Positions 8,316 through 31,438 of a stretch of 32,000 bases of DNA are shown in pieces (position 1 is the stretch's first letter; each line of letters starts with the position of its first letter). Below the pieces are notes generated by a model. The model was not told the DNA's origin. It did no database searches and was given only the letters and a program-made list of their open reading frames with translations. Origin of the DNA: Candidatus Saccharimonadota bacterium. Its GTDB lineage: Bacteria; Patescibacteriota; Patescibacteriia; 2-12-FULL-60-25. The translations under genes were made by a program, and so were the position numbers. The DNA is taken from positions 60,001-92,000 of the forward strand of contig JALHOH010000002.1 of the NCBI GenBank assembly GCA_022843095.1. The letters are read 5' to 3'.

Positions 8316-8391
8316 CACGACCTCCGCCCGTACCCCACCAATGTTCGTGGGCTTTGTCAATTTGCGAGCCGTTCGCTAGGATGACCGAACT

Positions 8392-11183: not shown

Positions 11184-11193
11184 CCTTTCATCT

Positions 11194-11523: not shown

Positions 11524-11525
11524 CC

Positions 11526-11565
11526 AAAACGACCCTGCCAGTAAGTCTGGCGGGGTCGTTTTTTT
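11526..11565. terminator. bidirectional intrinsic terminator between convergent genes
   Basis: A 13-bp stem pairs acgaccctgccag with ctggcggggtcgt (one G-U) around the loop taagt. It is flanked by an A-run (11526-11529) and a T-run (11560-11565). Confidence 0.75.
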
Positions 11566-12553
11566 AGACGATGGTCTGGAGAATCTGATCCACTTCTTCC
11601 ACGGTCGAGACGCGCACGAGTTTACTGCGCAGCTCTTTGCTTTTATGTGATTGCTTGAAATACCAGGGCAGGTGTTTGCGAAGTTTGGTGAGTCCGCCCG
11701 GTCCGTAGTGGTCGATTTGTAGGCGAACGTGCGTGCGGATGGTCTCGCGAATTTCTTCGAGCGTGGGCTCCGGAAGTACTACTCCGGTCATGAGATAGGT
11801 TTCCACGCGTTTGGCGAACCACGGGTTTCCGAGGAGTCCACGACCGATCAATACCCCATCGGCTCCAGAACGAGTCAGTGCTTCTTTTGCGAGCGCAGGC
11901 GTTGTGATATCGCCGTTCACGAGCACGGGGAGGTGGGGGATCTGGCGACGCGCCTCACCCACTCGGTCCCAGTTGGCGACCCCGCTGTATCCTTGTTCTT
12001 TGGTGCGTCCATGGATCGACACCAAATCCGCGCCGGCATCGGCAACCACCTTTACGAATTCCAAACAATCCGTGTCATGCTTCCAGCCAAGACGCGTTTT
12101 GACCGACACGGGGCAGGGAACAGCCTGCTTCATCGCACGAACAATGGCGGCGGCGCGATCCGGTTCACGAATAAGTGCTGCGCCATTAAAATTGCAGACG
12201 ATGTTGTACACGGGACACCCCATGTTGATGTCGATCCCATCCGGTTGGTACCTCTCGTAAATGATGCGTGCCGCCTCTGCCATCGTGGCCGGATCGCTCC
12301 CAAAGATCTGCTGGACGAGAGGTCGTTCTCGTTGGTCAAATTCCGCCATTTTGAGCGTTTTTGGATTCTGTCGTACGATGGCTTCAGAGGACACCATCTC
12401 CCGAAACATCAATCCAACCCCCTTATCCTTGCAGATTAGGCAAAAGGGGAGATCCGTCATATCTGCCATCGGCGCAAGCGCCACGATGGGACGGGGGAGG
12501 GAGGACCAATCGATCATGCGGCGGAGAATAGAGGATTTTTCAAAAATATTCAA
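11564..12553 (-). CDS. dus: tRNA-dihydrouridine synthase
   Basis: Dus-family TIM-barrel signatures are VALAPMADMTDLPF...QIFGSDP...GIDINMGCP...VSVKTRLGW...IHGRT. Confidence 0.88.
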   Translation of the reverse strand: MNIFEKSSILRRMIDWSSLPRPIVALAPMADMTDLPFCLICKDKGVGLMFREMVSSEAIVRQNPKTLKMAEFDQRERPLVQQIFGSDPATMAEAARIIYERYQPDGIDINMGCPVYNIVCNFNGAALIREPDRAAAIVRAMKQAVPCPVSVKTRLGWKHDTDCLEFVKVVADAGADLVSIHGRTKEQGYSGVANWDRVGEARRQIPHLPVLVNGDITTPALAKEALTRSGADGVLIGRGLLGNPWFAKRVETYLMTGVVLPEPTLEEIRETIRTHVRLQIDHYGPGGLTKLRKHLPWYFKQSHKSKELRSKLVRVSTVEEVDQILQTIV

Positions 12554-12651
12554 TCGTTTACGTTATCTTGCTTCACGAGCACTTTAAATGCATGAGCTTG
12601 TTTCACGGCTCGCGCGTCTGCTGAAAAATCTGGGTGTGGTATCATAGATGT

Positions 12652-13521
12652 ATGTACAAACATGCAAGTAAAGTCGTCGTAGGTGCAGCCATCGTGATTT
12701 TGATGATCGTCTGCTTGGCTGTCGTCGAATACGGGATGGGTACTGAGGCTCGTTTGGTTATTTTAGAGCAGCAGTATCACAGACTTTTTGGCGCACCAAC
12801 GAATCCACAAGAGAGCGCATCCTTGTTGGACACGAGACAGCCCGTGCTAGCATCGCAGGATGACAGAATTGAAGAACTTGAAAATCGTGTTAATAAATTG
12901 GAGACACTAGCCTTTGCTCCGCGAGATGCGAAGGGAAGAATGGTGCTAAGTACGTCAGGCATCGCCTTACTAAGTAGCGAGGTCGGTTCGATGGATCGAT
13001 TCTTTAGTAATTGGAATTCGAATTCACGAGCGTATCAAGAGTCTATTGCCATCGATGATCCTAAAATGAGACTTGTTGTCCCGTATGATACTTCTTGGGG
13101 AAATGATCTTATTGGGGTTTTGCCGTTTGAAGTAGGGGGCGGTGAGGAGCATTCTTCAAACGTTATTCTGTTCGGACCGGTAACTCTAAGCGAGATGCTG
13201 GGTACGAGTAGATGGTATGGGTTCCGTGACGTTTCTAGGCGAACCATTGAGCAAGCGTTGCAAGATTCAGGAAGCGTCACGGAAGATGAAACCGCAGAAG
13301 AAAGTGATGGATGTAGTGGACCTTCGCGAAAGGCGACCAAGGAAAAAGATATTGTAAAAATTGGTCCGAATACAGCATTGCGTTTGCGGTTTTCACATTG
13401 TGAAGGCGGGAGTATCTCGTTCGAAGTTTTTGGCGCACGCGCAAATTACCTCTTCTACTCCGATCCTTATCTGGAAGAATCAGGATTGCGCTGGACGATT
13501 GAGCGGTTTCGGGAGCGGTAG
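12652..13521 (+). CDS. hypothetical membrane-anchored protein (orphan)
   Basis: Part of ORF 12634..13521; I prefer the ATG at 12652 over the GTG at 12634. It has an N-terminal TM helix (VVVGAAIVILMIVCLAVV) and no recognisable domain. It looks visibly more AT-rich than its flanks. Confidence 0.5.
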   Translation: MYKHASKVVVGAAIVILMIVCLAVVEYGMGTEARLVILEQQYHRLFGAPTNPQESASLLDTRQPVLASQDDRIEELENRVNKLETLAFAPRDAKGRMVLSTSGIALLSSEVGSMDRFFSNWNSNSRAYQESIAIDDPKMRLVVPYDTSWGNDLIGVLPFEVGGGEEHSSNVILFGPVTLSEMLGTSRWYGFRDVSRRTIEQALQDSGSVTEDETAEESDGCSGPSRKATKEKDIVKIGPNTALRLRFSHCEGGSISFEVFGARANYLFYSDPYLEESGLRWTIERFRER

Positions 13522-13567
13522 AGAGTGGCGCATGGCGCAGAACGAGAAGTTCCCGTAAGCTTTGTGC

Positions 13568-15652
13568 ATGAACGAACGTTTTGCTCTGACGTCAAAATAC
13601 GCCCCTTCCGGTGACCAGCCGGAAGCGATTCAGCAGTTAACGGAGGGGCTCGCGAAGAACTACCGTTTTCAAACGCTTCTGGGCGCGACCGGCACGGGGA
13701 AGACGTTTACGATGGCGAACGTGATCCAGAACGTCCAAAAACCGACGCTCGTGATTGCGCATAACAAAACGCTCGCCGCGCAGTTGTGTAACGAGTTCCG
13801 CCAATTTTTTCCCGAGAACGCAGTGGAATATTTTGTTTCGTATTACGATTACTATCAGCCGGAGGCGTACATTCCGCGCAGCGACACCTACATCGAAAAA
13901 GAAGCGATGATCAACGAGGAGATTGATCGGTTGCGGCATTCGGCGACGCAGGCGCTTCTGACGCGCAAGGACGTGATCATCTGTGCGTCGGTGTCGTGTA
14001 TTTATGGTCTTGGGGCACCGGAGGCGTACGAAAAAATCATCTTGCATCTAAAAAAAGGGGATGACGTGGCGCGGCAGGAGGCGTTGACGCGGTTGATTGA
14101 GATGCAATTCGTGCGCACCAACGCGGATGTGATGCGCGGCCAGTTTCGGGCGCGTGGCGAGGTGTTAGAGATCATGCCAGTGAACGAAGAGGTGGTGTAC
14201 CGCATCGAAGCGCCGCGCGGGATTGTCCAAGGGATTTATCGGTTGGATCCTGTGACGCGCAAGGTGACGCGCGAGCAGGAGGAGTTGTGGGTGTTTCCGG
14301 CAAAGCACTTTGTGACGCTCGGGCCGGATCGAGAACGTGCGATCAAGGAAATTCGAGAGGAGTTGAAAGAACGTCTGGCGTATTTTGAGAAACACGGAAA
14401 ATTATTGGAGGCCGAACGGTTGGAGCGCAAGACGAAGTTCGATTTGGAGATGATCGAAAATCTGGGGTACTGCAACGGGATAGAAAACTATTCCCGCCCA
14501 TTGTCCGGCCGACCGGCAGGGGCGCCACCGGATACGTTGTTTTCGTATTTTCCGGATGACTTTTTGTTGGTCATCGATGAATCGCATGTCACGGTACCGC
14601 AGCTTGGAGGGATGTATGAAGGCGATCGTTCGCGTAAAGAAACGTTGGTGGAATATGGATTCCGCCTGCCATCGGCGAAGGATAACCGTCCCCTCAAATT
14701 CCCGGAATTGGAGGCAAAGATGAAGGCGGTGGTGTTTGTCTCCGCGACGCCGGGTGCGTATGAATTTGCGCATTCAACGCAGGTCGTCGAACAGATCATT
14801 CGTCCGACGGGGCTTGTGGATCCGGAGGTGTTGGTGTTGCCGATTACCCCAAAACACGGCGAGAAAGGGCAGGTAGATGATCTGCTTGCGCGGATTCCGG
14901 AGGTGTTGGAGCGCAATGAACGCGTGCTTGTGACAACGCTCACCAAAAAGATGGCGGAGGATCTGTCCGAATTCATGAAAGAAAAGAAGATGAAGGTCCG
15001 CTATTTGCATAGCGACATCGACACGATCGAGCGGTTGGAGATTCTTTCCGAGTTTCGCAAAGGAACATATGACATTATCGTCGGCGTGAACCTCCTTCGC
15101 GAAGGGTTGGATTTGCCGGAGGTGTCGCTTGTGGCGATTCTCGATGCAGATAAAGAAGGGTTTTTGCGTTCCGAGACGTCACTGATCCAAACCATCGGTC
15201 GTGCGGCACGTAACGTGCGCGGACAGGTGGTGCTCTACGCCGACGAAATGACGGGATCGATGAAGAACGCCATCCGGGAAACCGAACGTCGTCGTGCAAA
15301 ACAGTTGGCGTACAATGCGCTCCATGGCATCACGCCAAAAACCATCCTGAAAGCGCAGGAGGATTTGCGTGTCATGCTGGGATTATCCACGGAAGAAAAG
15401 GATGTGAAGGAGATCCTGAAACTCGAGCTCAGCGCAGAGACCCACGGACTTGAGCAGGTGAAAAAGCAAAAAGAGAAGGAGATGAAAGACGCAGCGAAGA
15501 ATCTCGAGTTTGAGTTGGCCGCCATTCTCCGCGATGAACTTGCCGTGCTGGAAAAAGAATTACGCAAACGCGAAAAAGGTGCGCCCTTGCCAGATGCGGA
15601 ACGAAAAAAGCTGGCGAAAAAGCGCCAGCCTCGACATGGGAGAACGCGTTAA
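13568..15652 (+). CDS. uvrB: excinuclease ABC subunit B
   Basis: Signatures are SKYAPSGDQPEAI, the Walker A LLGATGTGKTFT, and the C-terminal UVR domain EFELAAILRDELAVLEKEL. I prefer the ATG at 13568 over the TTG at 13562. Confidence 0.93.
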   Translation: MNERFALTSKYAPSGDQPEAIQQLTEGLAKNYRFQTLLGATGTGKTFTMANVIQNVQKPTLVIAHNKTLAAQLCNEFRQFFPENAVEYFVSYYDYYQPEAYIPRSDTYIEKEAMINEEIDRLRHSATQALLTRKDVIICASVSCIYGLGAPEAYEKIILHLKKGDDVARQEALTRLIEMQFVRTNADVMRGQFRARGEVLEIMPVNEEVVYRIEAPRGIVQGIYRLDPVTRKVTREQEELWVFPAKHFVTLGPDRERAIKEIREELKERLAYFEKHGKLLEAERLERKTKFDLEMIENLGYCNGIENYSRPLSGRPAGAPPDTLFSYFPDDFLLVIDESHVTVPQLGGMYEGDRSRKETLVEYGFRLPSAKDNRPLKFPELEAKMKAVVFVSATPGAYEFAHSTQVVEQIIRPTGLVDPEVLVLPITPKHGEKGQVDDLLARIPEVLERNERVLVTTLTKKMAEDLSEFMKEKKMKVRYLHSDIDTIERLEILSEFRKGTYDIIVGVNLLREGLDLPEVSLVAILDADKEGFLRSETSLIQTIGRAARNVRGQVVLYADEMTGSMKNAIRETERRRAKQLAYNALHGITPKTILKAQEDLRVMLGLSTEEKDVKEILKLELSAETHGLEQVKKQKEKEMKDAAKNLEFELAAILRDELAVLEKELRKREKGAPLPDAERKKLAKKRQPRHGRTR

Positions 15653-16554
15653 TGCGTCTCTCCGTGTGCTTCTTCGGGTTGTGCTGCCGTACGCGTTTTG
15701 ACGTCGACGGTGATGGGGAATGTGTGGACGGTGCTGTCGAGATTGAATTGGGCGTACAGGGTGTAGCGTCCCGGCGTCGGAAACTCGACCGCAAACCCAA
15801 GGGATCCATCTTTTGGCGCGGCGTTATCCAGCGGATGCGTGTGAGCAAAGACGAGCGCATCAAAATGTTTGAGCGCGACCACATGGCCATAGGCGCCCAA
15901 ATATGGATCAAACGCAGGCGGCGTCCCTTCGCGCGTCACGACGTATCGCACGTTGTTCCATCCCGTGACGAGTTCGGTGTTTTCCGCCGTTTCTAGGGTG
16001 ACATAATACCCATCCGTTCGGACGGCGCGATCGACGTTTGGATTTGGCTCTGCGTATGTCGGCGTTCCGGCGACCTTAAAGGAATCATGAAACACCATCG
16101 GCGTTTCTTGAAGAGGCGTCACATCGACGTAGATGTAGTAGTCACCCGGTTCGGTGAACGAGACGTCCGTGACCCAAGCGCCATCCACGAATTCAGGATG
16201 GAGGTGCTGAAATTGCGTCATGTCTTTGCGGACCAGCAAAAGGTGCACCAGCTTCTCGTGAACAAGTTGTAGCTGTTCCGGATCCAGCGGGGTACGATCT
16301 TTATTGAATAGTTGGAAGGCGAGTGTTTGTTTTCCTAACGAAAATTGTTGGGTCGCCAAACGGAACCGGCTCTCAATGATCGCGCGATTATTGGTGGGAG
16401 ACGTGGACGAGGTGATAGATTCAAAATCCTGAATGCGATGGCGTACGTCTTGAATCAGGGTTTCTTGAGAGGTCTTGGTTTCATGCGCTCCATCACAGCC
16501 GGCGCCAAGAAGGACAAGAAGCATCGCAGAGAGCGACAATACACGAGAGGACAT
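15649..16554 (-). CDS. secreted/lipoprotein-like hypothetical protein with HxHP motifs
   Basis: The signal peptide is MSSRVLSLSAMLLVLLGAGC, with a near-lipobox Cys. The beta-rich mature part carries QHLHPEF and AHTHPLD motifs and a C-terminal EEAHGETH. Confidence 0.6.
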   Translation of the reverse strand: MSSRVLSLSAMLLVLLGAGCDGAHETKTSQETLIQDVRHRIQDFESITSSTSPTNNRAIIESRFRLATQQFSLGKQTLAFQLFNKDRTPLDPEQLQLVHEKLVHLLLVRKDMTQFQHLHPEFVDGAWVTDVSFTEPGDYYIYVDVTPLQETPMVFHDSFKVAGTPTYAEPNPNVDRAVRTDGYYVTLETAENTELVTGWNNVRYVVTREGTPPAFDPYLGAYGHVVALKHFDALVFAHTHPLDNAAPKDGSLGFAVEFPTPGRYTLYAQFNLDSTVHTFPITVDVKTRTAAQPEEAHGETH

Positions 16555-18461: not shown

Positions 18462-19741
18462 GTTCTCCTATGGCGCAAGCCAAGAAAGCGAAGAAGAAGT
18501 TTTTTCCCACCAAGCCGAAGGCAAAACCGAAGGTAGCAAAGCCCGCCGTCAAAAAGGCACCTGCCAAGAAACCGGTTGCCGCAAAGAAAGGAAAGGCAGG
18601 AAAGGGAGCAAAAGCCACGCCGATCAAACGCGAGCCCTACAAAAAAGCAGAAGCGCCGACCCAAGAAGCGTTGGATCGGTTGTTTGAGAAGGCGCGCGGT
18701 CGTGGATTCATCACGGAAAATGAAATCCTCTACTCGTTTAAAGAAGTAGAAGATTATTTGGATACCTACGAACAGTTCATCGACCGGCTGGATGCAGCAG
18801 GGATCAGCCAGGTCGAGCAAAAAGAGGGGATTTTGGGACGCAGCAAAGACCGCCAGACGATTCTGGAAACGTTGCACTCCGCGGATGAACGTCGCAACAA
18901 AATCGATCCGATGGATCTGACGGCCGAGTCTATCCAAATCTACCTGCGTGAAATCGGGAAGATCCCGTTGCTCACGGCAGAACAAGAGGTGGCGCTCGCC
19001 AAGCGCAAAGAAAAGGGAGAAAAAGAGGCGGAACGGTGTTTGATCGAGGCGAACTTGCGCTTGGTCGTGTCGATCGCCAAGAAGTTCACCGGAAAAAGCT
19101 TGTCGCTGCTTGACCTGATCCAAGAGGGAAACATCGGGCTTTTCCGCGCCGTGAAGAAATTCGAATACCGCAAGGGATTCAAATTCTCCACGTATGCCAC
19201 CTGGTGGATCCGCCAGGCCATCACGCGTGCGCTTGCAGACCAATCTCGCACCATCCGCATCCCGGTGCACATGGTGGAAACCATCAACAAGTTTCAGCAG
19301 GTCGAACGCGAGCTCATCCAAGAGCTTGGCCGCGAACCAACACCAGAAGAAATCGCCGCGGAAATGGGACAGGAAGTCGACAAGGTGCGTCACATCATCA
19401 AAATTTCGCAGGACACGGTGTCGCTTGAGACGTCTGTCGGTGATGATGAAGATGACACGACGCTGCAGGACTTCATCGAAGACGTGAAGCATGTGACGCC
19501 GGATCGTTCTGCGGCGCTTCAGCTGCTGCGCGATTACGTCGGCGATATCATCAAAGACCTGAACCCGCGTGAACAAAAGATTCTGGAGATGCGCTTTGGG
19601 CTAAGCGATGGCGTCGGTCACACGCTCGAAGAAGTTGGGAAGGAATTCGACGTGACGCGCGAACGTATCCGCCAAATCGAGGCAAAAGCCTTAGAAAAGA
19701 TCCAACAGCACCCGATGATTCGCCGCCTGGCGGATTACTAG
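18458..19741 (+). CDS. rpoD: RNA polymerase sigma-70 factor RpoD with Lys/Ala/Pro-rich N-terminal tail
   Basis: Signatures are region 2 ([30 protein letters not shown]), IRIPVHM, and region 4 ([19 protein letters not shown]). There is an ATGA overlap with the dnaG stop. Confidence 0.93.
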
Positions 19742-19750
19742 GAAGAAGAC

Positions 19751-19773
19751 CGCCCGGGAAACCGGGCGTTTTT
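19751..19773 (+). terminator. intrinsic terminator after rpoD
   Basis: The hairpin is cgcccgg-gaaa-ccgggcg, followed by TTTTT. Confidence 0.8.
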
Positions 19774-19789
19774 CTTATTCGTTATCCAC

Positions 19790-19818
19790 TTGTCACGGGT
19801 TTTCAGATCTTGTATCCT
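19790..19818 (+). promoter_or_regulatory. possible sigma70-like promoter for tRNA-Asn
   Basis: The arrangement is TTGTCA (19790-19795), a 17-nt spacer, then TATCCT (19813-19818). It lies 28 nt upstream of the mature tRNA 5' end. The -10 match is weak. Confidence 0.3.
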
Positions 19819-19845
19819 CCACGTGCTGATGCAAATCAAGCCCAT

Positions 19846-19920
19846 TCCGGGGTAGCTCAGCGGTAGAGCAGTGGACTGTTAATCCATTGGTCCTGGGTTC
19901 GAATCCCAGCCCCGGAGCCA
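19846..19920 (+). tRNA. tRNA-Asn (anticodon GUU), CCA encoded
   Basis: Manual cloverleaf: acceptor tccgggg/ccccgga, D-arm gctc-agcggta-gagc, anticodon arm gtgga-CTGTTAA-tccat, variable tggtc, T-arm ctggg-ttcgaat-cccag, discriminator G, then CCA. Confidence 0.9.
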
Positions 19921-19958
19921 TGTGCTGGCGTTCCTGGTAACCCAGGTGCGTCGCAAAA

Positions 19959-20000
19959 AATCCAAAACCCCATCACTGAAAAGTGGTGGGGTTTTGGATT
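19959..20000. terminator. very long hairpin (18-bp stem) after tRNA-Asn; probable bidirectional terminator or structural boundary element
   Basis: The 5' arm aatccaaaaccccatcac (19959-19976) pairs with gtggtggggttttggatt (19983-20000) around the loop tgaaaa, with one G-U pair. An A-run precedes it. Confidence 0.6.
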
Positions 20001-20005
20001 GTAGT

Positions 20006-20129
20006 TATCAGTATTGTGTCGAGACCGAGTCTGCTATCAGCCGAAATTGGATACAGGGAGTATCAGTGGGGCAGCGGATTAATGTACACGACTATCATCT
20101 TTATCTTAACATTCCTTTCATATCCTAAC
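20006..20129 (+). repeat. cluster of same-orientation TATC-core direct repeats
   Basis: TATCAG occurs at 20006, 20035 and 20061, and TATCAT at 20093. A near-identical 9-mer pair, TATCTTAAC (20102-20110) and TATCCTAAC (20121-20129), follows. All lie in a 3'-to-3' intergenic region that needs no promoter. Confidence 0.6.
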
Positions 20130-20214
20130 GTGAGAATAGGAAAGGAATGTCGGCGGTCAGGTCGCCGAGAGGGGAGAGATATTCTTCACACCTGACATGA
20201 AGAAGTTATGAGGT

Positions 20215-21912
20215 TTACGACCACTCGGCAGCGTTTAGCAAGTCGAGATCTTTGTAGGTAACGGAAGCCGCCGGATGGGCGTATTCGATCACCTGCGCAC
20301 GAATAAACCCCTTGACAAAGGTCATGCCGGGCGGAAGATCGCGTCCAAAGGACTCGTAGTAAGCCTTCCGGGCTTCTTCACCTGCTTTCTGTCCGATGCG
20401 CAGTCGACGAGGAAAGCTGCGAACGTTGACCTCTCTCGTCACGTTCTGTCCGTCTTGCCCCGTTTTATGCCAGGAATGGCGTTCTCGGACGATGGAGTTT
20501 GCGGCGATAATGCGGAAGTACGCATCGACCACCGTGTATTCGAGGAGGGCGGCGAGAGTTTCCACTTCGTCCGCGTGCTCGCCGCGTATAACGATTTCCG
20601 GATGGACCTTGAGCTCAAGGTTTCGGAGCTCGGTCCGGAAGGTGATCAACGTAGGTGTCTCTTGCCGTACCACGATATCCACTCGAGTATCGGGGAAGGT
20701 GTAGCCCTCGGGGCGGAAAACGAAGCCCCGGATCCCGGCGTTTCGGAGCGCCGTGACCCCGACCTCTACGGAATCCTCACCGTTGGGGCGCAGAGTGCGC
20801 AGCGTCTTCCCAAGAATGGCCTGGGTCCGACGATCGAACTGCTGTTCGATCTCGTGACTATTCTCTTTGAACCAGTTGATGGTGCGTTCGCCGGTCTCGC
20901 GTTTTTTAAGCATCTGTTCGCGATGACGATCACGCCACTCTCTGAATTTGGTTGCGAACGGCTCTTGGATGCGCAGGCAGGGCTGGAAAGTGTACGCGGC
21001 GCGCTCCCGAAGAACTTCCAGGTCTTTTTCAGGCAGCTCTTCCTTTGCTCGCAGGAAGCCCGGATGCGAGCACGCCTCCTCTGGATGGTCATCGTAATCA
21101 TCGAACGCCTCATACCAAGGCTGATGAAGGACGAAGGCGGCGATATGCAGCAACGAAGACAGGATTTCTTCGGCTGCGTAGGATGTAGGCAACGCCTCGA
21201 TGATGCGTTCAAGCCATGCCTTTTGGGCTTGCTTGAGGTTAACCACTTCTTCTCCCAATTCCCCTTCCTGAAGAAGGGGTGCTTCATTGATAGAGTCTTG
21301 CAGGAATCCAAGGGCCCCACTCATCAACTCGACACTGTGGTTGTTTTCGAGTTGATCCGGCCTAACGGGTCCATGGCGAAGGTCTCCCTCCCAGGTGGAG
21401 ATGATGCTAAGAGCAAAGGAGAGTGCTTTATCGCACGAGACGCCTACCTGCCTTAGAAAAGCTTCCTGGAATTTGAAGAGCCCTCGACCCATGAGCCACA
21501 CCATCTGTGACTTAAGATCGCCATCCGAATCCAATCCTTTTGTCAGGACGTCCTCTCCGCGAGACCTGCTGTAGGCGAGAAAAAAGAGCTCAGGATTCTT
21601 GTTGGAAAGAAGCTGTTCCGCGATGGTGTCATGGAGTCGGTTGACACGCTTCGCGGTCTTGGACTCTTTCACCTGCTTTACCAAGGCGGCGTACTCCTCC
21701 TCACTCATCGGGTTCCCGCGCATCTCTCGCTCCAGGCATGGAACCAGGAGCTGCATGAGAGCGAGTTCGAGTTCTATGCAGACGGTCTCGAAGCGTTTCA
21801 GGCGCACATTTGCATCTGGAATTTCAAGGAGATGCGTGAGGATGCGGTGAAGCCATTTTTCGCTTTTACTATCCGAGAGGTAGCGCTTGAGATCGTGCTT
21901 GATGTTGGTCAT
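20215..21912 (-). CDS. 565-aa orphan protein; helical N-terminal two-thirds, C-terminal region with PD...ExK-like motif (function unknown)
   Basis: This is the longest ORF at the locus and has a natural amino-acid composition. Its ATG lies 2 nt after the stop of the upstream 131-aa gene (TAACCATG). I recognise no family. The motif FPDTRVDIVV...x...LELKV spans aa 407-435 (20608-20694). Confidence 0.7.
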   Translation of the reverse strand: MTNIKHDLKRYLSDSKSEKWLHRILTHLLEIPDANVRLKRFETVCIELELALMQLLVPCLEREMRGNPMSEEEYAALVKQVKESKTAKRVNRLHDTIAEQLLSNKNPELFFLAYSRSRGEDVLTKGLDSDGDLKSQMVWLMGRGLFKFQEAFLRQVGVSCDKALSFALSIISTWEGDLRHGPVRPDQLENNHSVELMSGALGFLQDSINEAPLLQEGELGEEVVNLKQAQKAWLERIIEALPTSYAAEEILSSLLHIAAFVLHQPWYEAFDDYDDHPEEACSHPGFLRAKEELPEKDLEVLRERAAYTFQPCLRIQEPFATKFREWRDRHREQMLKKRETGERTINWFKENSHEIEQQFDRRTQAILGKTLRTLRPNGEDSVEVGVTALRNAGIRGFVFRPEGYTFPDTRVDIVVRQETPTLITFRTELRNLELKVHPEIVIRGEHADEVETLAALLEYTVVDAYFRIIAANSIVRERHSWHKTGQDGQNVTREVNVRSFPRRLRIGQKAGEEARKAYYESFGRDLPPGMTFVKGFIRAQVIEYAHPAASVTYKDLDLLNAAEWS

Positions 21913-21914
21913 GG

Positions 21915-22310
21915 TTAGCCTTCTTTCTTTTGAGTGTTGGTTTTTTGATGGAGATGGATTCGAAGCTCGGCTTCTGTGTGGTAAGTCGCTTGGAGGTTTT
22001 TTAGGAACTCTATAAAGGTTGGCTTATCCTTTTCTGGCATGGCTCGGTACACGGTAACGAGCTTAGCCATATACCGCTTGAGGGTTTGGGGTCCGATGCC
22101 AACGCTCGGTGCAGGCTTCGAACAGAGATGCGCCACCTCCCTACATTGGAGTGAGAACTCTACGGGTCGTTCCTTGTAAGCGGCGGCCAGTTCTGGTTTT
22201 GTGCTTGCAGCCCAGCGAGCGAAGTCGTTCTTGGTGACCCCGATCAGTTCCGGGCGCAATCCGGTCCATTCCAGATATACGGCGATCAGCTCGTCCAATG
22301 AGATGGTCAC
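21915..22310 (-). CDS. 131-aa small protein with helix-turn-helix-like segment (putative regulator/DNA-binding)
   Basis: The segment VGIGPQTLKRYMAKLVTVY resembles an HTH. The gene is first in the minus-strand operon, is translationally coupled to the 565-aa gene, and faces a divergent AT-rich control region. Confidence 0.55.
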   Translation of the reverse strand: MTISLDELIAVYLEWTGLRPELIGVTKNDFARWAASTKPELAAAYKERPVEFSLQCREVAHLCSKPAPSVGIGPQTLKRYMAKLVTVYRAMPEKDKPTFIEFLKNLQATYHTEAELRIHLHQKTNTQKKEG

Positions 22311-22390
22311 GATGATTCCTCGTGTTGAGAAGGTTCGTTTTCTGGGCTAGATGCTCAGAATAGTTCCTATTCAAGGGCATTTTTTATTAT

Positions 22391-22439
22391 TTGTCAACGG
22401 TGCTTTTATGGCAATTCGTCAGTGGGTATCGATTGACAA
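22391..22439. promoter_or_regulatory. inverted heptamers in divergent control region (candidate operator/promoter elements)
   Basis: TTGTCAA (22391-22397) and its reverse complement TTGACAA (22433-22439) sit in the AT-rich 198-bp gap between the divergent operons. Both also resemble -35 hexamers. CAGTGGGTATC lies at 22420-22430. Confidence 0.35.
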
Positions 22440-22508
22440 AACCGCATTTTTCGTCTCAAACTAGCGTCAGTCCATTGGACAACTAAACAAGCAGAAAGGC
22501 AGGTCTGT

Positions 22509-25500
22509 ATGGCAGCCCTGAAAAATAAGGGTCATATGCTGGCCCTGATCCGCAAAAGCAAAATCCCGGAAGAGGAAAAGAGAGCGTTTCTCGCAGAGCT
22601 GGTCCGCACGGGTCAAGTCACCGAGGACGATCTCGCTCGCTCCATCCTTGAAGATGTACGAACGAACTTTGAGGACTACAAGCAGCAGTTCGCGAGCGAT
22701 GAAATGTTGACATTCCTTTGGGAGCGGTTCAAAGACCATCCTGAAATGTTGGCTAGGGCACTCGTGAAAGCGCGCCCGGACATCTTCTATGTCTACGGGT
22801 TGGCGATCCGCCTTGTCCTTAAACTCCGTGCGGAACTTGGAAAGGTGCTGGTCAAGCCGAAGCTTGGGAATGGGGGCGGCGTCCGAGACATCGCGCCGTC
22901 CCCGAAGCTACCGCAGGCGGTTTCACAAGACATCATCGCCCTCGACGTGGAATGCCGATTTCGCGAATCGCTGTTCTTCTTTAGCCGGGACGTCGAGATT
23001 GGGAGGGAGTTCATCCGCGAAGAACTCGGCCGAGCCAAGGGTCCGTACGAGCGCCAGGTGTGGGAAGGTGTGCAGATGCTCGTCGCCCAGCTTCTCGATC
23101 TGCCGTATCCGGGCGTGAAAACGGAATTGAACGGCAAGATGTTTCCTGCCATGCATGTGCGTTGGTGGCACTACCTTGCCGCCGACCTGAAACGCGTCCT
23201 CAACATCGGCGACACGGGAAGCTATAAGACTTCTTTTGCCGCCATTGCGATGCGCCGGGCGGGTTGCCGTAGGACGCTTGTCCTTGCGGCTCCTCATGCG
23301 CGCGAGAATTGGCGCAGGGAACTCGGCCTCTACTTCGAGGAACGTCCGTCCGTTCAGATCGTATCCGGCGTCGAAGACGTCGATGATCTGCACCCGGAAG
23401 CGGACTTCGTCGTGATTGGATACTCGACCCTCGTTGAAAAGGGGGTCGTGGAAAAGCTGATCGCGCAAAAGTTCGACGGTCTCATCGAGGACGAGTGTCA
23501 CTATACGCGTAACGTCGTGGATTCCCCGGCGAAGCGCGCGCTCGCTAGGATGCGACTCGTCCAAGAGCTGCCGCTCGATCGCTACCTCGCGCTTTCGGCG
23601 ACGCCTTGGGAGAACCGTCCGGAAGAGATGGCGAGCTTGGCCTCGGCACTGCGACCCGATCTTTTTCCAACGCCCGAGGTGTTCCTGGGTAGCGGAGCGG
23701 CGAGCAGTCCGCGTCTCATGCGGGAGTTGTTCGCCGGGCAAATTCTCGACATCGAGCTGCGCGAAGTTACGGACATGCCGGAGATCACACCCAAACCCTG
23801 GGAGGACCTCTGCCCGTCCGTGACTGTTCGTCCCAATCGTCAACATCTCGCCTTTTATCGGCGGGTACTGGATGATGAAGAAGAATCCCTCGAACCGCAC
23901 CAAAAAGTGCAGCGACTCCTCATGGCCGCCATCCATCCGCCACTTCTTGCGCGCAAGCTCAAGAAGTGGACGGATCCGCCTCGCGCGAACGATTGGAAGT
24001 TGTCGAGCAAGCTCGTGTGGTTAAAACAATTCGTTACGGAGCGGATTGGTACGCAGAAAATCGTCATCGCGAGCGGGCTCTATGCCTCAGGGATCACACA
24101 TCCTTCCGAGATGGAGGATATGGAAACCGAGTGGGTAGGCGGAATTCTCCGCGCCTGGTTTGGCAAGGAGACCGTCGTAACCATCGACGATACGGTCGGT
24201 CTCGGCGCTCCCGAGGGTGGATTGTCGCCCCGGGACCGAGCGATCCAGCGTTGGCGAACGGATCCGAGCGCCAGGATTCTGCTCATCTCGAGCCAGTCGT
24301 GTCCGGATTCGGTCAACCTGTCGGTTGGCAAGCTGCCGGGCGTCGAGGGGCTTGCGATCACCTTCCTGTCCTTCGGATGGAAGCCGTGGAAGCAATTCCT
24401 CGGCCGCTTCTTCCGGTACGGCCAAGGAGTGCCGATCACTTTCGTCTATCCGGTCGTGGCAGGCACGATCGACGAGGACCTGCTCCGCCTGAACCGCGAG
24501 AAGTGGCAGGCGCAGCTCTTGTTCCGCGCCGGCGCGCCTCTCACGGATGATGAATGGCGGGCGTTGCAAAGCGAAAACGGCGAAGCGATTCAGCGTCTCA
24601 TGCGGGACGCTTCCGATCATGTCGCCATCCTCTTCAACCAGATGCGCGGAGAAGGGGAGCGTGCCTGCCGGGAAATCCTGGACCAGGCGTACGGGGCAGT
24701 TTCTGCGGAGGAGGCGCTTGCCATGCACTTCCTCGCTGCGCAGGACTACTCCATGAGCGGGCATATCTCGCGCTTCCAGAAAACTGTGATTGAGCAATGG
24801 ATCGCCTGTGGTCTCATTACTCCGACGCGGATTCTAGATGCGGGATGCGGCCCCCTTACTCTTGAACGGAGGCTCTTCCTTCCAGTATACGGTGTGGACC
24901 TCAACCGTCACATGCTCGAACTGGGATCGGGGCTCTCGTCGCACCATGGCGTCAATGCCACGGTCGGTCGGTTGTCCGAGCTTCCGTCCGAATGGAAAGG
25001 GAAGTTCGAGCTTACGGTTGCGACCATGGTCCTCGACCTGACGAGCTTGAAAGAGCCGTCCCATGGTGAACCGGAACGTGTGCGCATCTTGCAGGAGCTT
25101 GTGCGGGTCACGGATCCGCATAGCCTCGTCTGGCTTACGTGGAGCTATAATTGCCACACGCCGGAAACTTTTCAGGCGTGGGTTGAGGCGTTGGAGCAAG
25201 CGGGTTGCAAGATCCGTTCCGAGCTCACAGGCCTCGTCCAGGCAACAGACCATGAAGAACAGCCGTGTGAATTCTGGTCTTTGGCGTTTTCGCCCCATGG
25301 GAAGACGCCGACCTTCGTTCGTCCCGAACTTCTTAGGTTCGCCTTCGAGATCGAGAGGATGAAGGATCGGAAAGGAGGGGTGGCGAAACCACCGAAACCT
25401 CCAAAGACCAAGAGGCGTGTCGCGCACGAGCGCTTCGCTGTCACGACCGCGACCGGTCAGCTCACCGACGTGGATGCGGCGAAAGCGGCTGCCTTGAACG

Positions 25501-25634
25501 AGCTGCTGCGATGGATGAACGCGGGCGTGCAGACGCGGAAACTGCACCCGGCGACCATTGATCTGGCCGCGCATTTCGCCCGCGATTGGCGTGTTCTCCG
25601 TGCTCTCCAAGAGCAGGGACTGATCACCCTGTGA
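22509..25634 (+). CDS. SNF2-family (SF2) ATPase/translocase fused to a C-terminal class I SAM-dependent methyltransferase domain
   Basis: Helicase motifs are motif I GDTGSYKTS (23208-23234), motif II DECH (23490-23501), motif III LSATPWEN (from 23592), the C-lobe ILLISSQSCPDSVNL, and motif VI QFLGRFFRYGQ (24393-24425). MTase motifs are motif I ILDAGCGPL (24831-24857), then VYGVDLN and ELVRVTDPHSLVWLTW. A basic linker KPPKPPKTKRR is followed by a C-terminal helical domain. Confidence 0.85.
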   Translation: MAALKNKGHMLALIRKSKIPEEEKRAFLAELVRTGQVTEDDLARSILEDVRTNFEDYKQQFASDEMLTFLWERFKDHPEMLARALVKARPDIFYVYGLAIRLVLKLRAELGKVLVKPKLGNGGGVRDIAPSPKLPQAVSQDIIALDVECRFRESLFFFSRDVEIGREFIREELGRAKGPYERQVWEGVQMLVAQLLDLPYPGVKTELNGKMFPAMHVRWWHYLAADLKRVLNIGDTGSYKTSFAAIAMRRAGCRRTLVLAAPHARENWRRELGLYFEERPSVQIVSGVEDVDDLHPEADFVVIGYSTLVEKGVVEKLIAQKFDGLIEDECHYTRNVVDSPAKRALARMRLVQELPLDRYLALSATPWENRPEEMASLASALRPDLFPTPEVFLGSGAASSPRLMRELFAGQILDIELREVTDMPEITPKPWEDLCPSVTVRPNRQHLAFYRRVLDDEEESLEPHQKVQRLLMAAIHPPLLARKLKKWTDPPRANDWKLSSKLVWLKQFVTERIGTQKIVIASGLYASGITHPSEMEDMETEWVGGILRAWFGKETVVTIDDTVGLGAPEGGLSPRDRAIQRWRTDPSARILLISSQSCPDSVNLSVGKLPGVEGLAITFLSFGWKPWKQFLGRFFRYGQGVPITFVYPVVAGTIDEDLLRLNREKWQAQLLFRAGAPLTDDEWRALQSENGEAIQRLMRDASDHVAILFNQMRGEGERACREILDQAYGAVSAEEALAMHFLAAQDYSMSGHISRFQKTVIEQWIACGLITPTRILDAGCGPLTLERRLFLPVYGVDLNRHMLELGSGLSSHHGVNATVGRLSELPSEWKGKFELTVATMVLDLTSLKEPSHGEPERVRILQELVRVTDPHSLVWLTWSYNCHTPETFQAWVEALEQAGCKIRSELTGLVQATDHEEQPCEFWSLAFSPHGKTPTFVRPELLRFAFEIERMKDRKGGVAKPPKPPKTKRRVAHERFAVTTATGQLTDVDAAKAAALNELLRWMNAGVQTRKLHPATIDLAAHFARDWRVLRALQEQGLITL

Positions 25635-25719
25635 ACCCAATGACGGATCCCGTTCCGCGTGGGATTCGTTTGCCTCCTTAGATCATGCCTTCGAAACGTC
25701 TCAACTTTCTAGAGGTGTC

Positions 25720-26337
25720 ATGGCTAAAAAGGTTCAGGTAAACGATGATGGTTTCTTCCGTCGCGAGCATGACGTGCTCGCCAAAGACCTGCTTGGCCGC
25801 AAGGTCAAACTCGACGCGACGTTCTTCTACATCCTCGAAGCCGAAGGCTACCCGGCGGAGAAGAACGGCGGCCTCTACGAACCGGTCATGAAGATGTCTC
25901 CCGGAGGCATCTTCTGCCCGAAGTACCACAATCACTGCCTCCTCTTGATTGCTTGCCTTTCGAGTGGGTCGATCGGAGGATGTGTCCTTGTGCGCGCCAT
26001 TGAGCGAGCCGACGGGCGTATGATCAAGCGTCCTGGTCTGGTCGCCCAGGACCTCGGCATCGAGGACCACGGTGTCACAGGTACCATGCACGAGCGCGAC
26101 GGAGTGCTGGGGTTGGGTCTGAACGGGGCTAATCCGCCGACGATCGAGCCCGTGACGACCAGCGCGCCCACCGGCGTGAGCCAGGCGGAGATCCAATCTC
26201 GCATGGGTAAGATCATGAAGGTCTATCAGGAACGCCGAAAGGCGGATACGGCGCTGACCTTCGAGGTCTTCCTCAAACAGTGCTTCGCCTGCAAGACTCC
26301 GCGCGCGCTCGGCCTGATGCTGAACGAATCGGTATAA
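25720..26337 (+). CDS. divergent alkyladenine/3-methyladenine DNA glycosylase (AAG/Mpg family)-like protein with C-terminal extension
   Basis: The protein is collinear with human AAG. FFRREHDVLAKDLLGRKV matches FFDQPAVPLARAFLGQVL. ILEAEGY (25831-25851) matches IVETEAY, which carries the catalytic Glu. MSPGGIF...GGCVLVRAIE matches MKPGTLY...GACVLLRALE. An RBS GAGG lies 5 nt upstream of the ATG. Confidence 0.6.
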   Translation: MAKKVQVNDDGFFRREHDVLAKDLLGRKVKLDATFFYILEAEGYPAEKNGGLYEPVMKMSPGGIFCPKYHNHCLLLIACLSSGSIGGCVLVRAIERADGRMIKRPGLVAQDLGIEDHGVTGTMHERDGVLGLGLNGANPPTIEPVTTSAPTGVSQAEIQSRMGKIMKVYQERRKADTALTFEVFLKQCFACKTPRALGLMLNESV

Positions 26338-26375
26338 TCGCGAGCGACTTCCGCTTGCGGTTCGGCAATCTGAAC

Positions 26376-26426
26376 CCGTATCGATGGATTCTCTCTTTAG
26401 AGGGCGTCCATTCGATACGGTTTTTT
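26376..26426 (+). terminator. intrinsic terminator closing the plus-strand operon
   Basis: The 5' arm ccgtatcgatgga (26376-26388) pairs with tccattcgatacgg (26407-26420) with one bulge. It is followed by TTTTTT (26421-26426). Confidence 0.8.
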
Positions 26427-26573
26427 CTATTTAGAAGAGTTAATTTGATAGGGGAAAATCGTGTATGATTTGTCTGATTTCCCTCGTGACCCACGTGCGT
26501 AAAATGCCGTCGTAAAAACCTCCAAGGATCCTTCCTAAACCGAGTTCACCACCCGCCCGTTGAGCCACGCGAG

Positions 26574-26607
26574 ACCGATCGTCGCAAGACGGTCGGTTTT
26601 GCATTTT
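26574..26607 (+). terminator. second, orphan intrinsic terminator about 55 nt upstream of the next gene
   Basis: The stem accgatcgtc-gcaa-gacggtcggt has 10 bp including one G-U pair and is followed by TTTTGCATTTT. No annotated plus-strand gene ends just before it. Confidence 0.6.
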
Positions 26608-29826: not shown

Positions 29827-30459
29827 ATGAGTCAGCTCGCAAACAAGTACGATGCTCTGGGTGGATTCTACGATTTCTTGACCGCTTATCTGGAGGCTCG
29901 CCCGATTCGCGCATTGCGTGAGGGGATCGTCTCTCGCGCGGATGGACACACGCTCGACGCGGGATGTGGAACGGGCCGCAATTTGCTGTATGTTCCGAAG
30001 GACGCGGACGTCGTCGGAGCGGATCTCTCGCGAAAGGCGCTTGCCGTCGCGGAAACGCGAGCCAAGCGGCTGGGCGTTCCGTTTCTTCCCATGACCGCGG
30101 ACCTCGCGCATCTCCCATCGACGGAAGCACAATTCGACTCGATTGTGTGCACGTTCGTGGGATGCACGCTGGACGATCCGCGCGCGGTCTATCGTGAGTT
30201 TGCTCGTGTGATCCGGCGGTCCTCCGAGGGCGCCGCATCCGGCAAAGGAGGCTTGCTCATGCTCGAGCACGTTCGTGTTGATAACAGCACCGCCTTCCGC
30301 GTGTTCAGCAAGGTGATCGCCCCCTTGTCACGACGGCTGTTGCACTGCGATCCGAATCGCAACACCATGCAGATGGTCGAAGAAGCGGGATTTCGCATCA
30401 CGGACACCCAAGCCTTTCTCGGTGGGATGTTCGTGGGGTTCCGCGCCGTTCCCATCTGA
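29827..30459 (+). CDS. class I SAM-dependent methyltransferase (Methyltransf_11-like)
   Basis: Part of ORF 29743..30459; I prefer the start at MSQLANKY (29827). Signatures are motif I TLDAGCGTGRNL, then VVGADLS and FDSIVCTF. Confidence 0.8.
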   Translation: MSQLANKYDALGGFYDFLTAYLEARPIRALREGIVSRADGHTLDAGCGTGRNLLYVPKDADVVGADLSRKALAVAETRAKRLGVPFLPMTADLAHLPSTEAQFDSIVCTFVGCTLDDPRAVYREFARVIRRSSEGAASGKGGLLMLEHVRVDNSTAFRVFSKVIAPLSRRLLHCDPNRNTMQMVEEAGFRITDTQAFLGGMFVGFRAVPI

Positions 30460-30463
30460 CCCA

Positions 30464-30487
30464 ACACCACAGAAGTGGTGTTTTTTT
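30464..30487 (+). terminator. intrinsic terminator after the methyltransferase gene
   Basis: The hairpin is acaccac-agaa-gtggtgt, followed by TTTTTT. Confidence 0.75.
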
Positions 30488-30529
30488 ATGGCTGACAAAC
30501 AGAGGAGTATTCGTTACAGTGCTGGGAGT

Positions 30530-31438
30530 ATGCAAAAAATAATCCCGCATCTGTGGTTTGATACGCAGGCAAAGGAAGCTGCGACGTTTTATACGACGGT
30601 TTTTCCAGGGGCCAAGATTCTTTCTTCTACCCTCCTGTCCGGCACGCCATCGGGGAATGTAGAGATCGTTAATTTTGAGGTGTACGGCTTGCGGTTCGGC
30701 TCCATCTCGGCGGGGCCGTTTTTTAAGATCAATCCCTCCATTTCGTTCATGATCAACTTTGATCCGTCCAAACAGGCGGATGCGGGAGAGGAGTTGGACC
30801 GCGTGTGGAAGGCGCTTTCGGAAGGGGGAACGGTACGCATGCCTATTGGGGAGTATCCGTTTAGTAAGCGGTATGGGTGGATCGAGGATCGGTTCGGGGT
30901 GAACTGGCAACTTATTTTGACCGATCCTGCGGGCGAGCCACGACCCAAGCTCATGCCCGCGCTTCTCTTTACCCAGTCTCTGGCTGGAAAAGCGGAGGAG
31001 GCGACGAACTACTATCTTTCCGTGTTCAAAGGGGGAAAACGAGGGAATCTCGCGCGGTATCCGGCGGGGATGGAACCGGACAAAGAGGGGACCATCATGT
31101 TCACGGATGTTGAGCTTGCGGGCCAATGGTTTGTGGCCATGGATAGCGCACAGAAACACGATTTTCTCTTCAATGAAGCGGTGTCGCTCATGGTAGAATG
31201 CGAGACGCAGGAGGAGATCGATTATTACTGGGAAAAATTGAGCGCCGTCCCTGAGGCGGAGCAATGCGGATGGCTGAAAGATCAGTTTGGGATTTCTTGG
31301 CAGATTGTGCCGTCGGACATGGATGCCATGATGTCCAAGGGGACGCCAGAACAGCGTGCACGGGTGACGCACGCGTTTCTGCAGATGAAAAAGTTTGACC
31401 TGGCAACGTTACGCCGGGCGTATGAAGGTGCGATGTAA
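30530..31438 (+). CDS. tandem PhnB-like / 3-demethylubiquinone-9 3-methyltransferase-domain (VOC superfamily) protein
   Basis: There are two internal repeats. The first is MQKIIPHLWFDTQAKEAATFY...YGWIEDRFGVNWQL. The second is KLMPALLFTQSLAGKAEEATNYY...CGWLKDQFGISWQIVP. An alternative start at 30488 abuts the upstream terminator, so I prefer 30530. Confidence 0.75.
   Translation: MQKIIPHLWFDTQAKEAATFYTTVFPGAKILSSTLLSGTPSGNVEIVNFEVYGLRFGSISAGPFFKINPSISFMINFDPSKQADAGEELDRVWKALSEGGTVRMPIGEYPFSKRYGWIEDRFGVNWQLILTDPAGEPRPKLMPALLFTQSLAGKAEEATNYYLSVFKGGKRGNLARYPAGMEPDKEGTIMFTDVELAGQWFVAMDSAQKHDFLFNEAVSLMVECETQEEIDYYWEKLSAVPEAEQCGWLKDQFGISWQIVPSDMDAMMSKGTPEQRARVTHAFLQMKKFDLATLRRAYEGAM

Follow-up and report, generated by a model that had tools for sequence, protein, structure and literature searches.

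Translocase-coupled methyltransferases drive several restriction and defence systems. In the Type ISP enzymes (LlaGI, LlaBIII) an N-terminal Mrr/PD-(D/E)xK nuclease stands on one polypeptide with a superfamily 2 (SF2) ATP-dependent translocase of double-stranded DNA (dsDNA), followed by an S-adenosylmethionine (SAM) methyltransferase (MTase) of the gamma N6-adenine (N6A) class carrying an NPPW motif, and a target recognition domain (TRD). DISARM (DrmD with DrmMI/DrmMII) and Dpd (DpdE) place an SNF2-like ATPase beside DNA modification in multi-gene arrangements, and proteins of the P1 DarB type are polyvalent SNF2/helicase–MTase proteins. To our knowledge, all characterised translocase-coupled methyltransferases use N6A, N4-cytosine (N4C) or C5-cytosine (C5) DNA MTases. 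Here we describe a family that pairs an SNF2 motor with a different MTase class, starting from a 32,000-nucleotide stretch of a Candidatus Saccharimonadota bacterium (assembly GCA_022843095.1, contig JALHOH010000002.1, positions 60,001 to 92,000), hereafter the window. Its gene at 22509–25634, termed the hub, had been singled out by a first-pass annotation as a fusion of an SNF2 ATPase with a class I MTase. The hub is the centre of a conserved multi-gene cassette (20150–26602), which that annotation overlooked. We classified the system as a variant of translocase-coupled methyltransferase systems: the hub works most like the translocase-coupled DNA modification enzymes (Type ISP, DISARM), yet without their defining features.

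An SNF2 motor fused to a class I methyltransferase

The open reading frame (ORF) matched the reported one exactly (+ strand, 1041 aa), and all motifs quoted for it were located in the given order and spacing, SAM motif I beginning 135 residues past motif VI where a gap of about 130 had been estimated. Its C-terminal sequence reads ...RVLRALQEQGLITL, as quoted before. Judged by its homologues, the hub is a real gene with support far above chance, as 46 full-length homologues (about 1030–1077 aa, 38–79% identity) were found together with 210 cluster representatives at E<=1e-30 in an exhaustive profile search. The features of the hub are as follows.

22509..25634, + strand: hub gene, 1041-aa SNF2–MTase fusion, stop codon included in the end coordinate (ORF and homologues)
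22509..23123 (aa 1–205), + strand: lineage-specific N-terminal all-alpha domain (AlphaFold2 model)
23151..24563 (aa 215–685), + strand: SNF2 ATPase/translocase core (Pfam, PDB profile, PHROGs, motifs)
23208–23231 (aa 234–241), + strand: P-loop GDTGSYKT (motif location)
23490–23501 (aa 328–331), + strand: motif II DECH (motif location)
23592–23615 (aa 362–369), + strand: motif III LSATPWEN (motif location)
24393–24425 (aa 629–639), + strand: motif VI QFLGRFFRYGQ (motif location)
24564..25313 (aa 686–935), + strand: class I SAM MTase, helical lid and Rossmann fold (AlphaFold2, Foldseek, profiles)
24831–24857 (aa 775–783), + strand: SAM motif I ILDAGCGPL (motif location)
24891–24905, + strand: acidic motif II GVDLN (motif location)
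25314..25631 (aa 936–1041), + strand: basic linker and conserved C-terminal tail (conservation, model)
aa 960–970, + strand: basic linker motif KPPKPPKTKRR (motif location)

Pfam searches with the single hub sequence gave weak but coherent matches to SNF2-rel_dom, ResIII and Methyltransf_31/25/11, the SNF2-rel_dom score of 24.9 bits lying exactly at the cutoff. With the profile of 44 family members, the Sulfolobus Rad54-like SNF2 structure 1z63 was the top match in the PDB (E 7e-13, aa 253–673, both lobes), the next SNF2 matches being Mot1, Fun30/Fft3, INO80 and ISWI. The SNF2 N-lobe further matched phrog_62, annotated as 'DNA helicase', in PHROGs (E 2.9e-23). The SNF2 ATPase identity is thus borne out by Pfam, the PDB profile and PHROGs. 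Motifs I, II, III and VI are arranged over two RecA-like lobes, as in the SNF2 family of SF2, and K240, D328, E329, R633 and R636 are invariant within the family. The hub shares this two-lobe ATPase with all helicase-like motifs with 1z63 and the eukaryotic remodeller ATPases, whereas its flanking domains and partners differ and its P-loop has a Tyr where Gly precedes the Lys. This S-Y before the Lys, earlier remarked on as unusual, proved to be a true lineage trait, since in the superfamily alignment the preceding residue is G, Y, F, Q, M or T (F, Q, M or T in relatives) and K-T is invariant. SNF2 enzymes translocate on duplex DNA, and we know of no SNF2-family motor that works on RNA.

The AlphaFold2 model of aa 686–1041 consists of a helical lid, a Rossmann MTase and a small beta/alpha tail, with a predicted local distance difference test score (pLDDT) of 88.7 and a predicted template modelling score (pTM) of 0.88. 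Our AlphaFold2 models were built on shallow multiple sequence alignments (22 and 18 sequences) and are confident nonetheless. Foldseek against the PDB returned UbiG, METTL5, NovO, nucleomethylin/Rrp8, Bud23, NTMT1 and MnmM, with a Foldseek probability of 1.0 for many class I MTases and the best TM-score, 0.74, for nucleomethylin/Rrp8 (2zfu). No DNA MTase occurred among the top 50 structural neighbours, nor among the PDB sequence matches of the family and region profiles. The family profile also matched the small class I MTases 3sm3, ToxA, 3l8d and NovO/CouO (E 6e-8 to 2e-6 for 3sm3 and ToxA), and the first match of the MTase-region profile was ToxA 8rdl (E 6.6e-7). Methyltransf_8, the Rrp8 family, was matched by two relatives under the Pfam cutoff (P0102, E 2e-5; P0076, E 5e-4) and not by the window hub, and FtsJ matches in relatives were likewise sub-threshold. 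The LDAGCGP motif I, the acidic VDLN motif and the Rossmann fold together identify a class I MTase, in which D777, G781, D797 and N799 are family-invariant.

Sequence and structural neighbours agree with the Methyltransf_11-type enzyme proposed from the single sequence, which places the hub MTase in a class without known action on DNA. The motif (D/N/S)PP(Y/F/W) was present in 0/44 family members and 1/124 wider relatives, and the C5 motifs PC[QHT] and ENV appeared in 2/44 and 4/44 members, respectively, at non-homologous positions only. The earlier statement that no N6A, N4C or C5 DNA-methylase motif is present therefore extends to the family, with PC and ENV sporadic, and a search across the family for a catalytic DNA-MTase motif that might have been missed found none. 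Rrp8/nucleomethylin (which makes N1-methyladenine, m1A), Bud23 (N7-methylguanine, m7G), METTL5 and ToxA resemble the hub MTase in fold (Rossmann), in motif I (GxGxG), in an acidic motif II and in lacking a PP-type motif IV, but identity to the hub is just 14–18% and no family threshold is reached. The methylation targets of ToxA are ring nitrogens in a purine-like heterocycle. We know of no enzyme of the Rrp8, Bud23, METTL5 or ToxA type that is fused to an SNF2 motor or acts on DNA. Rrp8 makes its m1A in rRNA (PMC3553958).

Both enzymatic domains of the hub look active, because the P-loop K-T, DExH, Q..GR..R.GQ, xDxGxGP and (V/I)D(L/I/M)N are kept in the 44 members and in about 124 wider relatives. 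The two flanks remained without an assignable relative, as had been noted. The AlphaFold2 model of aa 1–232 is all-alpha with 11 helices (pLDDT 80) and a disordered loop at 112–127, and searches with it returned no structural relative, either from the PDB (best E 2.8) or from the viral models of BFVD. At the C-terminus, which had been suggested to be winged-helix-like, the model forms a beta-hairpin and helices (pLDDT 62–92), with the tail packed against the MTase; F976, W1027 and R1028 of the tail are conserved, and the median isoelectric points (pI) of linker and tail are 10.4 and 9.7.

The resemblance to Type ISP enzymes suggested by the domain order did not hold beyond the succession of SF2 translocase and MTase on one polypeptide. 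Where those enzymes carry a nuclease, the hub has its all-alpha N-terminus (no PDB match at E<2.8), which excludes a PD-(D/E)xK nuclease at this position; where they carry a gamma-class MTase and a TRD, it has no NPPW/NPPY motif and no evident TRD, its C-terminal 106 aa being linker and tail. In contrast to Type ISP, DNA recognition apparently resides here on separate partner proteins, namely DNA-binding arrays in related loci. DISARM and Dpd are likewise multi-gene, yet DrmA/B/C and DpdA/B/C are not in the neighbourhood and the MTase class differs. PADLOC gave no Drm or Type ISP-like match for the hub, with DpdE alone appearing (E 1e-3, 14.9 bits, about 100–110 aa). A known defence system was rejected, as PADLOC found nothing significant in the hub and ten partner or neighbour proteins and PHROGs matched the helicase part only. 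The polyvalent phage and conjugative-element proteins of PHROG 62 resemble the hub in the SNF2 N-lobe and in being helicase–methyltransferase fusions, but they are much larger, reside on mobile elements and carry DNA N6A-type MTases, whereas the hub family is chromosomal. The fusion could not be traced to a well-annotated housekeeping family, for which NCBIfam gave nothing near its cutoffs; for RapA and the pilus-regulating Snf2 proteins, NF053675 scored 18.5 bits against a cutoff of 1100, and RapA was outside the 60 best PDB matches.

The AAG-like partner and the shared module

The hub is followed after 86 bp by a gene for a 205-aa protein, and two genes for proteins of 131 and 565 aa lie upstream on the opposite strand. 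Besides the hub, the cassette comprises the following features.

25720..26337, + strand: partner 1, 205 aa, MPG/AAG fold and module of about 55 aa (Pfam, hhalign, linkage)
~25750–26079, + strand: N-terminal MPG/AAG-fold domain of partner 1 (Pfam, hhalign)
~26158–26331, + strand: C-terminal ~55-aa module of partner 1 (profile)
21915..22310, - strand: partner 2, 131-aa basic protein, shared module at its C-terminus
~21942–22115, - strand: C-terminal ~55-aa module of partner 2 (profile, E 4.9e-21)
20215..21912, - strand: partner 3, 565 aa, variable 'large partner' slot (homologues beside the hub in other loci)
22386..22414, - strand: promoter-like site upstream of the 131-aa gene (consensus scan only, 10/12 match), within the 198-bp divergent intergenic region between this gene and the hub
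26569..26602, + strand: terminator-like hairpin with a 15-bp stem, closing the operon of hub and MPG-like gene (scan)
20150..20168, - strand: terminator-like hairpin past the 565-aa gene, the other cassette edge (scan)

Pur_DNA_glyco (PF02245) matched the window copy of the 205-aa partner at 22.8 bits (E 6.6e-5), below the cutoff of 27, and 7/9 partner orthologues with a best E of 6.8e-9. In hhalign, the partner family aligned to human AAG with a probability of 91% (E 1e-6). The AAG sequence used there reproduces the published numbering (E125, Y127, H136, Y159, Y162, N169, R182). No direct match to solved AAG structures was obtained by hmmsearch or phmmer, the kinship appearing at the profile level only.

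MTase-bearing hub and MPG-like gene are adjacent in 14 of the 15 loci with usable flanks, of which ten come from one subfamily, and the partner lies directly downstream in 12. In this subfamily, which we call Uhrbacteria-type, all loci examined (the window locus, L001, L003–L009 and L016) have a partner orthologue beside the hub. Of five more distant loci, four carry the pair as well:

L010: hub 1566 aa, MPG-like partner 173 aa (local profile hidden Markov model (HMM), E 5e-19)
L011: hub 2256 aa, MPG-like partner 185 aa (local HMM, E 1e-9)
L013: hub 856 aa, MPG-like partner 157 aa (Pfam Pur_DNA_glyco, 55.7 bits, above the cutoff)
L014: hub 804 aa, MPG-like partner 162 aa (Pfam Pur_DNA_glyco, 68.7 bits, above the cutoff)

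The MPG family is normally present in no more than one copy per genome, so the pairing is not due to chance.

AAG flips alkylated or deaminated purines into an aromatic pocket. Aligned to its motif I-V-E-T-E125-A-Y127, the 22 partners always show Y, F or W at the position of Tyr127, whereas the Glu125 column, which depends on aligning divergent sequences with MAFFT and hhalign, reads E4/D6/Q7/K2/A1/G1/V1. Glu occupies this catalytic position in the window copy; Ala and Gly occupy it in the two partners that score highest against Pfam. Of AAG/MPG (PF02245), the partner retains the fold core, the motifs PG and G(G/A)CV and the equivalent of Tyr127, which stacks on the base, but it is truncated (157–205 aa compared to a catalytic domain of about 220 aa), and in the Uhrbacteria-type subfamily the ~55-aa module replaces the C-terminal part of AAG. 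It is moreover genetically tied to the SNF2–MTase, unlike AAG, a stand-alone repair gene. The E125Q and E125A variants of AAG bind DNA like the wild type and have no activity (PMC5363859). With the base-stacking aromatic residue kept, the catalytic Glu not conserved and the family truncated, the AAG-like partner most likely reads, binding a flipped purine, and does not excise. Partners with E or D, the window copy included, may have some glycosylase activity.

The C-terminal ~55 aa are homologous between the partners of about 200 aa and the proteins of about 125 aa, and an iterated profile of this module collected 23 copies at E<=1e-15. Its carriers in the Uhrbacteria-type subfamily are the MPG-like partner, the ~125-aa protein and, in other genomes, DNA-binding-repeat arrays; in some of these larger partners it stands N-terminally, followed by four INT_rpt repeats, multiple helix-turn-helix (HTH) domains or five DUF4379 treble-clef zinc fingers. 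The module was not detected in the hub or the window 565-aa protein, even with the iterated profile. The N-terminal alpha domain of the hub was seen only where partners carry the module, and distant hubs lacking this domain have short partners lacking the module. As the two co-occur, the module probably docks partners onto the N-terminal domain, a candidate docking platform, and both are candidate new protein families. Small partners are basic (pI 8.5–9.4), and in L014 the hub/MPG-like pair is followed by HNH_repeat arrays.

Hubs without an MTase, ending at about aa 690, occur in L019 (5965–9470) and the related short contig L021 (2–3139), where the hub is followed by a protein of the shared module and five DUF4379 treble-clef zinc-finger repeats. 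Within the 14 kb of context in L019 we found no MTase and no MPG-like ORF, and the module-bearing partner is kept. Seen in a single clade, this co-absence links the MPG-like protein with the MTase, and the module with the N-terminal and SNF2 part.

The 565-aa protein gave no match in Pfam, PADLOC, PHROGs or the PDB (the last with a family profile) and has no internal repeats; it is fast-evolving, with homologues adjoining the hub in L004, L005 and L006. A single family for all large upstream proteins was rejected, as groups A, B, L001_454 and L007_660 showed no homology by HMM and hhalign. The content of the large-partner slot thus either evolves extremely fast or is swapped, while the hubs stay >40% identical, which resembles conflict-like evolution. 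In L003, a stretch of about 1.9 kb upstream of the hub (6055–8001) contains no ORF >98 aa and has a GC content of 49–52%, compared to 57–62% for the genes on either side. It gave neither a tandem repeat nor an Rfam match, and this segment could be a decayed partner gene or a non-coding element.

Distribution of the family and neighbourhoods of the loci

All named sources of the 46 full-length homologues are Patescibacteria, i.e. members of the Candidate Phyla Radiation (CPR) (Uhrbacteria, Sungbacteria, Parcubacteria), and the named members of the wider superfamily include Roizmanbacteria and a Woesearchaeota (DPANN) archaeon. With taxon names available for few relatives, the family appears limited to the CPR and at least one archaeon of the DPANN group. 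Many superfamily members (750–2256 aa) match query aa ~224–990 in one stretch and are therefore SNF2 and Methyltransf_11 fusions with other or no N-terminal extension. A scan of genome contigs with the single sequence reached one close relative, L005 (CAZRDS010000029.1), which is labelled uncultured Gammaproteobacteria bacterium and carries the whole cassette with 51–78% protein identity to the window; this metagenome-assembled genome is probably mislabelled or mis-binned. A phage or plasmid origin was rejected, since the tblastn matches among 50,697 phage and 72,556 plasmid records were partial, fell in the SNF2 part and covered <=37% of the query. A scan of IMG/VR gave one weak SNF2-only match and no full-length relative. 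Full-text literature searches returned no description of the SNF2–MTase/MPG-like pairing, and a preprint on CPR methyltransferases names SWI2/SNF2 associations generically only.

Around the loci, repair genes (uvrA/B, AP endonucleases, AlkD-like) occur side by side with defence or mobile genes (Cas12a, DndB-like, NERD, toxin–antitoxin, homing endonucleases). Repair and replication genes near the module are uvrA/uvrB in L001 and L006, AP_endonuc_2 in L004 and L007, a ligase in L014 and topA in L012. In L011 (hub 8001–14771) the MPG-like gene overlaps the 2256-aa hub relative, and AlkD-like DNA_alkylation and Exo_endo_phos (ExoIII-like) genes lie about 5 kb off (19255–20783). In the Sungbacteria locus L008, metK (S-adenosylmethionine synthetase) is directly upstream of the hub, and behind the cassette, at 11453–15909, come a gene for a compact Cas12a-like protein of 856 aa (Cpf1 PI-like, RuvC, NUC), cas1, cas2 and then an integrase. 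In the Uhrbacteria locus L007 (10939–12000), the gene straight after the cassette encodes a DndB-like protein of 353 aa (Pfam E 1.4e-5, below cutoff). NERD and PIN-MazE genes neighbour the hub in L013, and homing-endonuclease genes and ParE in L014. Upstream of the cassette in L009 (169–5351) lie three genes, which encode proteins of 350 aa and 650 aa (the latter containing HATPase_c_3) and, in opposite orientation, one of 676 aa; PADLOC gave only faint matches to RmrA and TmtA, and this cluster could be a separate defence-like unit.

The whole window is core chromosomal DNA, with glycosyltransferases, a Mur ligase, GluRS, Dus, UvrB, DnaG, RpoD and two tRNAs. One of these, tRNA-Asn(GTT) at 19846–19920, lies between rpoD and the 565-aa gene, directly upstream of the cassette. 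An integrated island at this tRNA was rejected, as there is no tRNA-derived direct repeat and no integrase, the composition is unremarkable and the flanks are core genes. Elsewhere in the window, two ORFs have no Pfam match (295 aa, 12634–13521, + strand, in the gap between dus and uvrB; 301 aa, 15649–16554, - strand, in the gap between uvrB and dnaG). A 338-aa protein at 30422–31438 (+ strand) contains two 3-dmu-9_3-mt (PhnB/glyoxalase-like) stretches in an apparent internal duplication. The GT4 glycosyltransferase at 3265–4380 (+ strand) gives a sub-domain match to PF20706 'GT4-conflict' (E 8.9e-9, no single stretch significant), which is probably generic GT4 similarity.

Competing explanations and biological meaning

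DNA is the likeliest arena for the hub, because its motor belongs to a family of dsDNA translocases, partners bear DNA-binding arrays, the small partners are basic, and a large CPR/DPANN superfamily keeps a conserved module with an MPG/AAG-like partner. We tentatively favour a DNA-tracking methyl writer acting with an AAG-like purine reader in DNA marking or surveillance, a possibility that we place slightly short of an even chance. Partner proteins would bring the hub to DNA, the SNF2 motor would track along the duplex, and the MTase would methylate a purine ring nitrogen by N7-G, N3-A or N1-A type chemistry; this chemistry is proposed because it needs no PP motif and fits the nearest MTase relatives. 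The AAG-like partner would then tell methylated from unmethylated purines, the variable partners would provide targeting, and the outcome would be DNA marking for self/non-self discrimination or genome surveillance.

Several observations weigh against this account. Similarity this distant does not reveal what the MTase methylates. A protein N-terminal MTase (NTMT1) and small-molecule MTases (UbiG, NovO) also stand among its structural neighbours, and domain charge, with a mildly acidic Rossmann part (pI ~6), gives no decisive signal on the substrate. No MPG-like partner was found in L012 (hub 1281 aa), the catalytic position is acidic (E or D) in 10/22 partners, some of which may still be glycosylases, the co-absence of MTase and MPG-like protein comes from a single clade, and docking is read from co-occurrence. 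No PADLOC model matches the hub or its partners, no nuclease or other effector is consistently present at the loci, the window hub lies amid core housekeeping genes (uvrB, dnaG, rpoD, GluRS), and the repair genes recurring near the module fit housekeeping as well as a conflict role.

That genomic setting, the repair and replication genes in L001, L004, L006, L007, L011, L012 and L014, the lack of an att-type repeat at the adjacent tRNA-Asn and the absence from phages and plasmids would all suit housekeeping genome maintenance, in which the SNF2 motor clears or remodels protein–DNA complexes at alkylation lesions in the manner of RapA, Mfd or CSB and the AAG-like partner senses the lesions. The MTase would then methylate protein, as its neighbour NTMT1 does, or sense SAM, and no DNA would be modified. 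Neither a RapA nor an Mfd signature was found in NCBIfam or the PDB, however, the lack of a conserved catalytic Glu would be odd for a repair glycosylase, a hypervariable large partner and swappable DNA-binding arrays are atypical of repair, and proximity to repair genes is weak evidence because CPR genomes are small; we regard maintenance as unlikely, though it is a serious contender. Programmed base-excision restriction, with the hub methylating foreign purines (3-methyladenine or 7-methylguanine type), the partner excising them and the resulting abasic (AP) sites destroying the invader, draws on the same MTase–AAG pairing in 14/15 loci and on the partners that retain E or D. It would also accord with the AP endonuclease genes near L004, L007 and L011 and the defence or mobile neighbours in L007 (DndB-like), L008 (Cas12a–Cas1–Cas2), L013 (NERD, PIN-MazE) and L014 (homing endonucleases, ParE). 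We consider it improbable, as the catalytic position is occupied by Q, K, A, G or V in 12/22 partners, the two that match Pfam best among them, a self-protection component is not apparent and PADLOC gave no match.

The structural neighbours of the MTase are mostly RNA-base enzymes, which, with the sub-threshold Methyltransf_8 and FtsJ matches in relatives, would fit an RNA-modification machine: an rRNA or tRNA base methyltransferase (Rrp8, Bud23, METTL5 or MnmM-like) with the SF2 part remodelling RNA or ribonucleoprotein. Structural classification relates the MPG fold to the C-terminal domain with which formyltransferase binds tRNA, so that the partner might bind RNA through an FMT_C-like fold. 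SNF2 motors being dsDNA translocases, the partners DNA-binding arrays (HTH, INT_rpt, treble-clef, HNH_repeat) and the loci without linkage to ribosomal or tRNA genes, we hold such a machine to be decidedly improbable. Scarcely any credence is left for a compact Type ISP/DISARM-like restriction–modification enzyme, or for an anti-restriction protein of the polyvalent kind borne by a mobile element. The similar helicase-then-MTase order and the match to phrog_62, which covers giant phage helicase proteins, speak for it, but it is already largely refuted by the all-alpha N-terminus without a nuclease fold, the missing N6A motif IV, the lack of PADLOC matches, the core chromosomal location and the lack of a full-length relative in the phage, plasmid and IMG/VR collections.

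Even if the system serves housekeeping, it is a conserved uncharacterised multi-protein machine in minimal genomes, where retained genes likely matter. Should DNA be the substrate of the writer and reader that we favour, prokaryotic epigenetics and immunity would gain a new chemistry, that of programmed ring-nitrogen methylpurines, as well as a new fold for readers, and the system would show how a repair glycosylase can be converted into a recognition module. A full DNA modification system of a new kind, with a translocase-coupled MTase of the RNA/small-molecule type deliberately writing a ring-nitrogen methylpurine mark (N7-methylguanine, N3- or N1-methyladenine, for instance) on duplex DNA, an AAG-fold protein, catalytically disabled or in some lineages still active, reading or excising it, and swappable DNA-binding partners targeting it, seems to us quite unlikely. 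If true, CPR and DPANN organisms would possess a self/non-self or epigenetic code made from bases so far considered DNA damage only.

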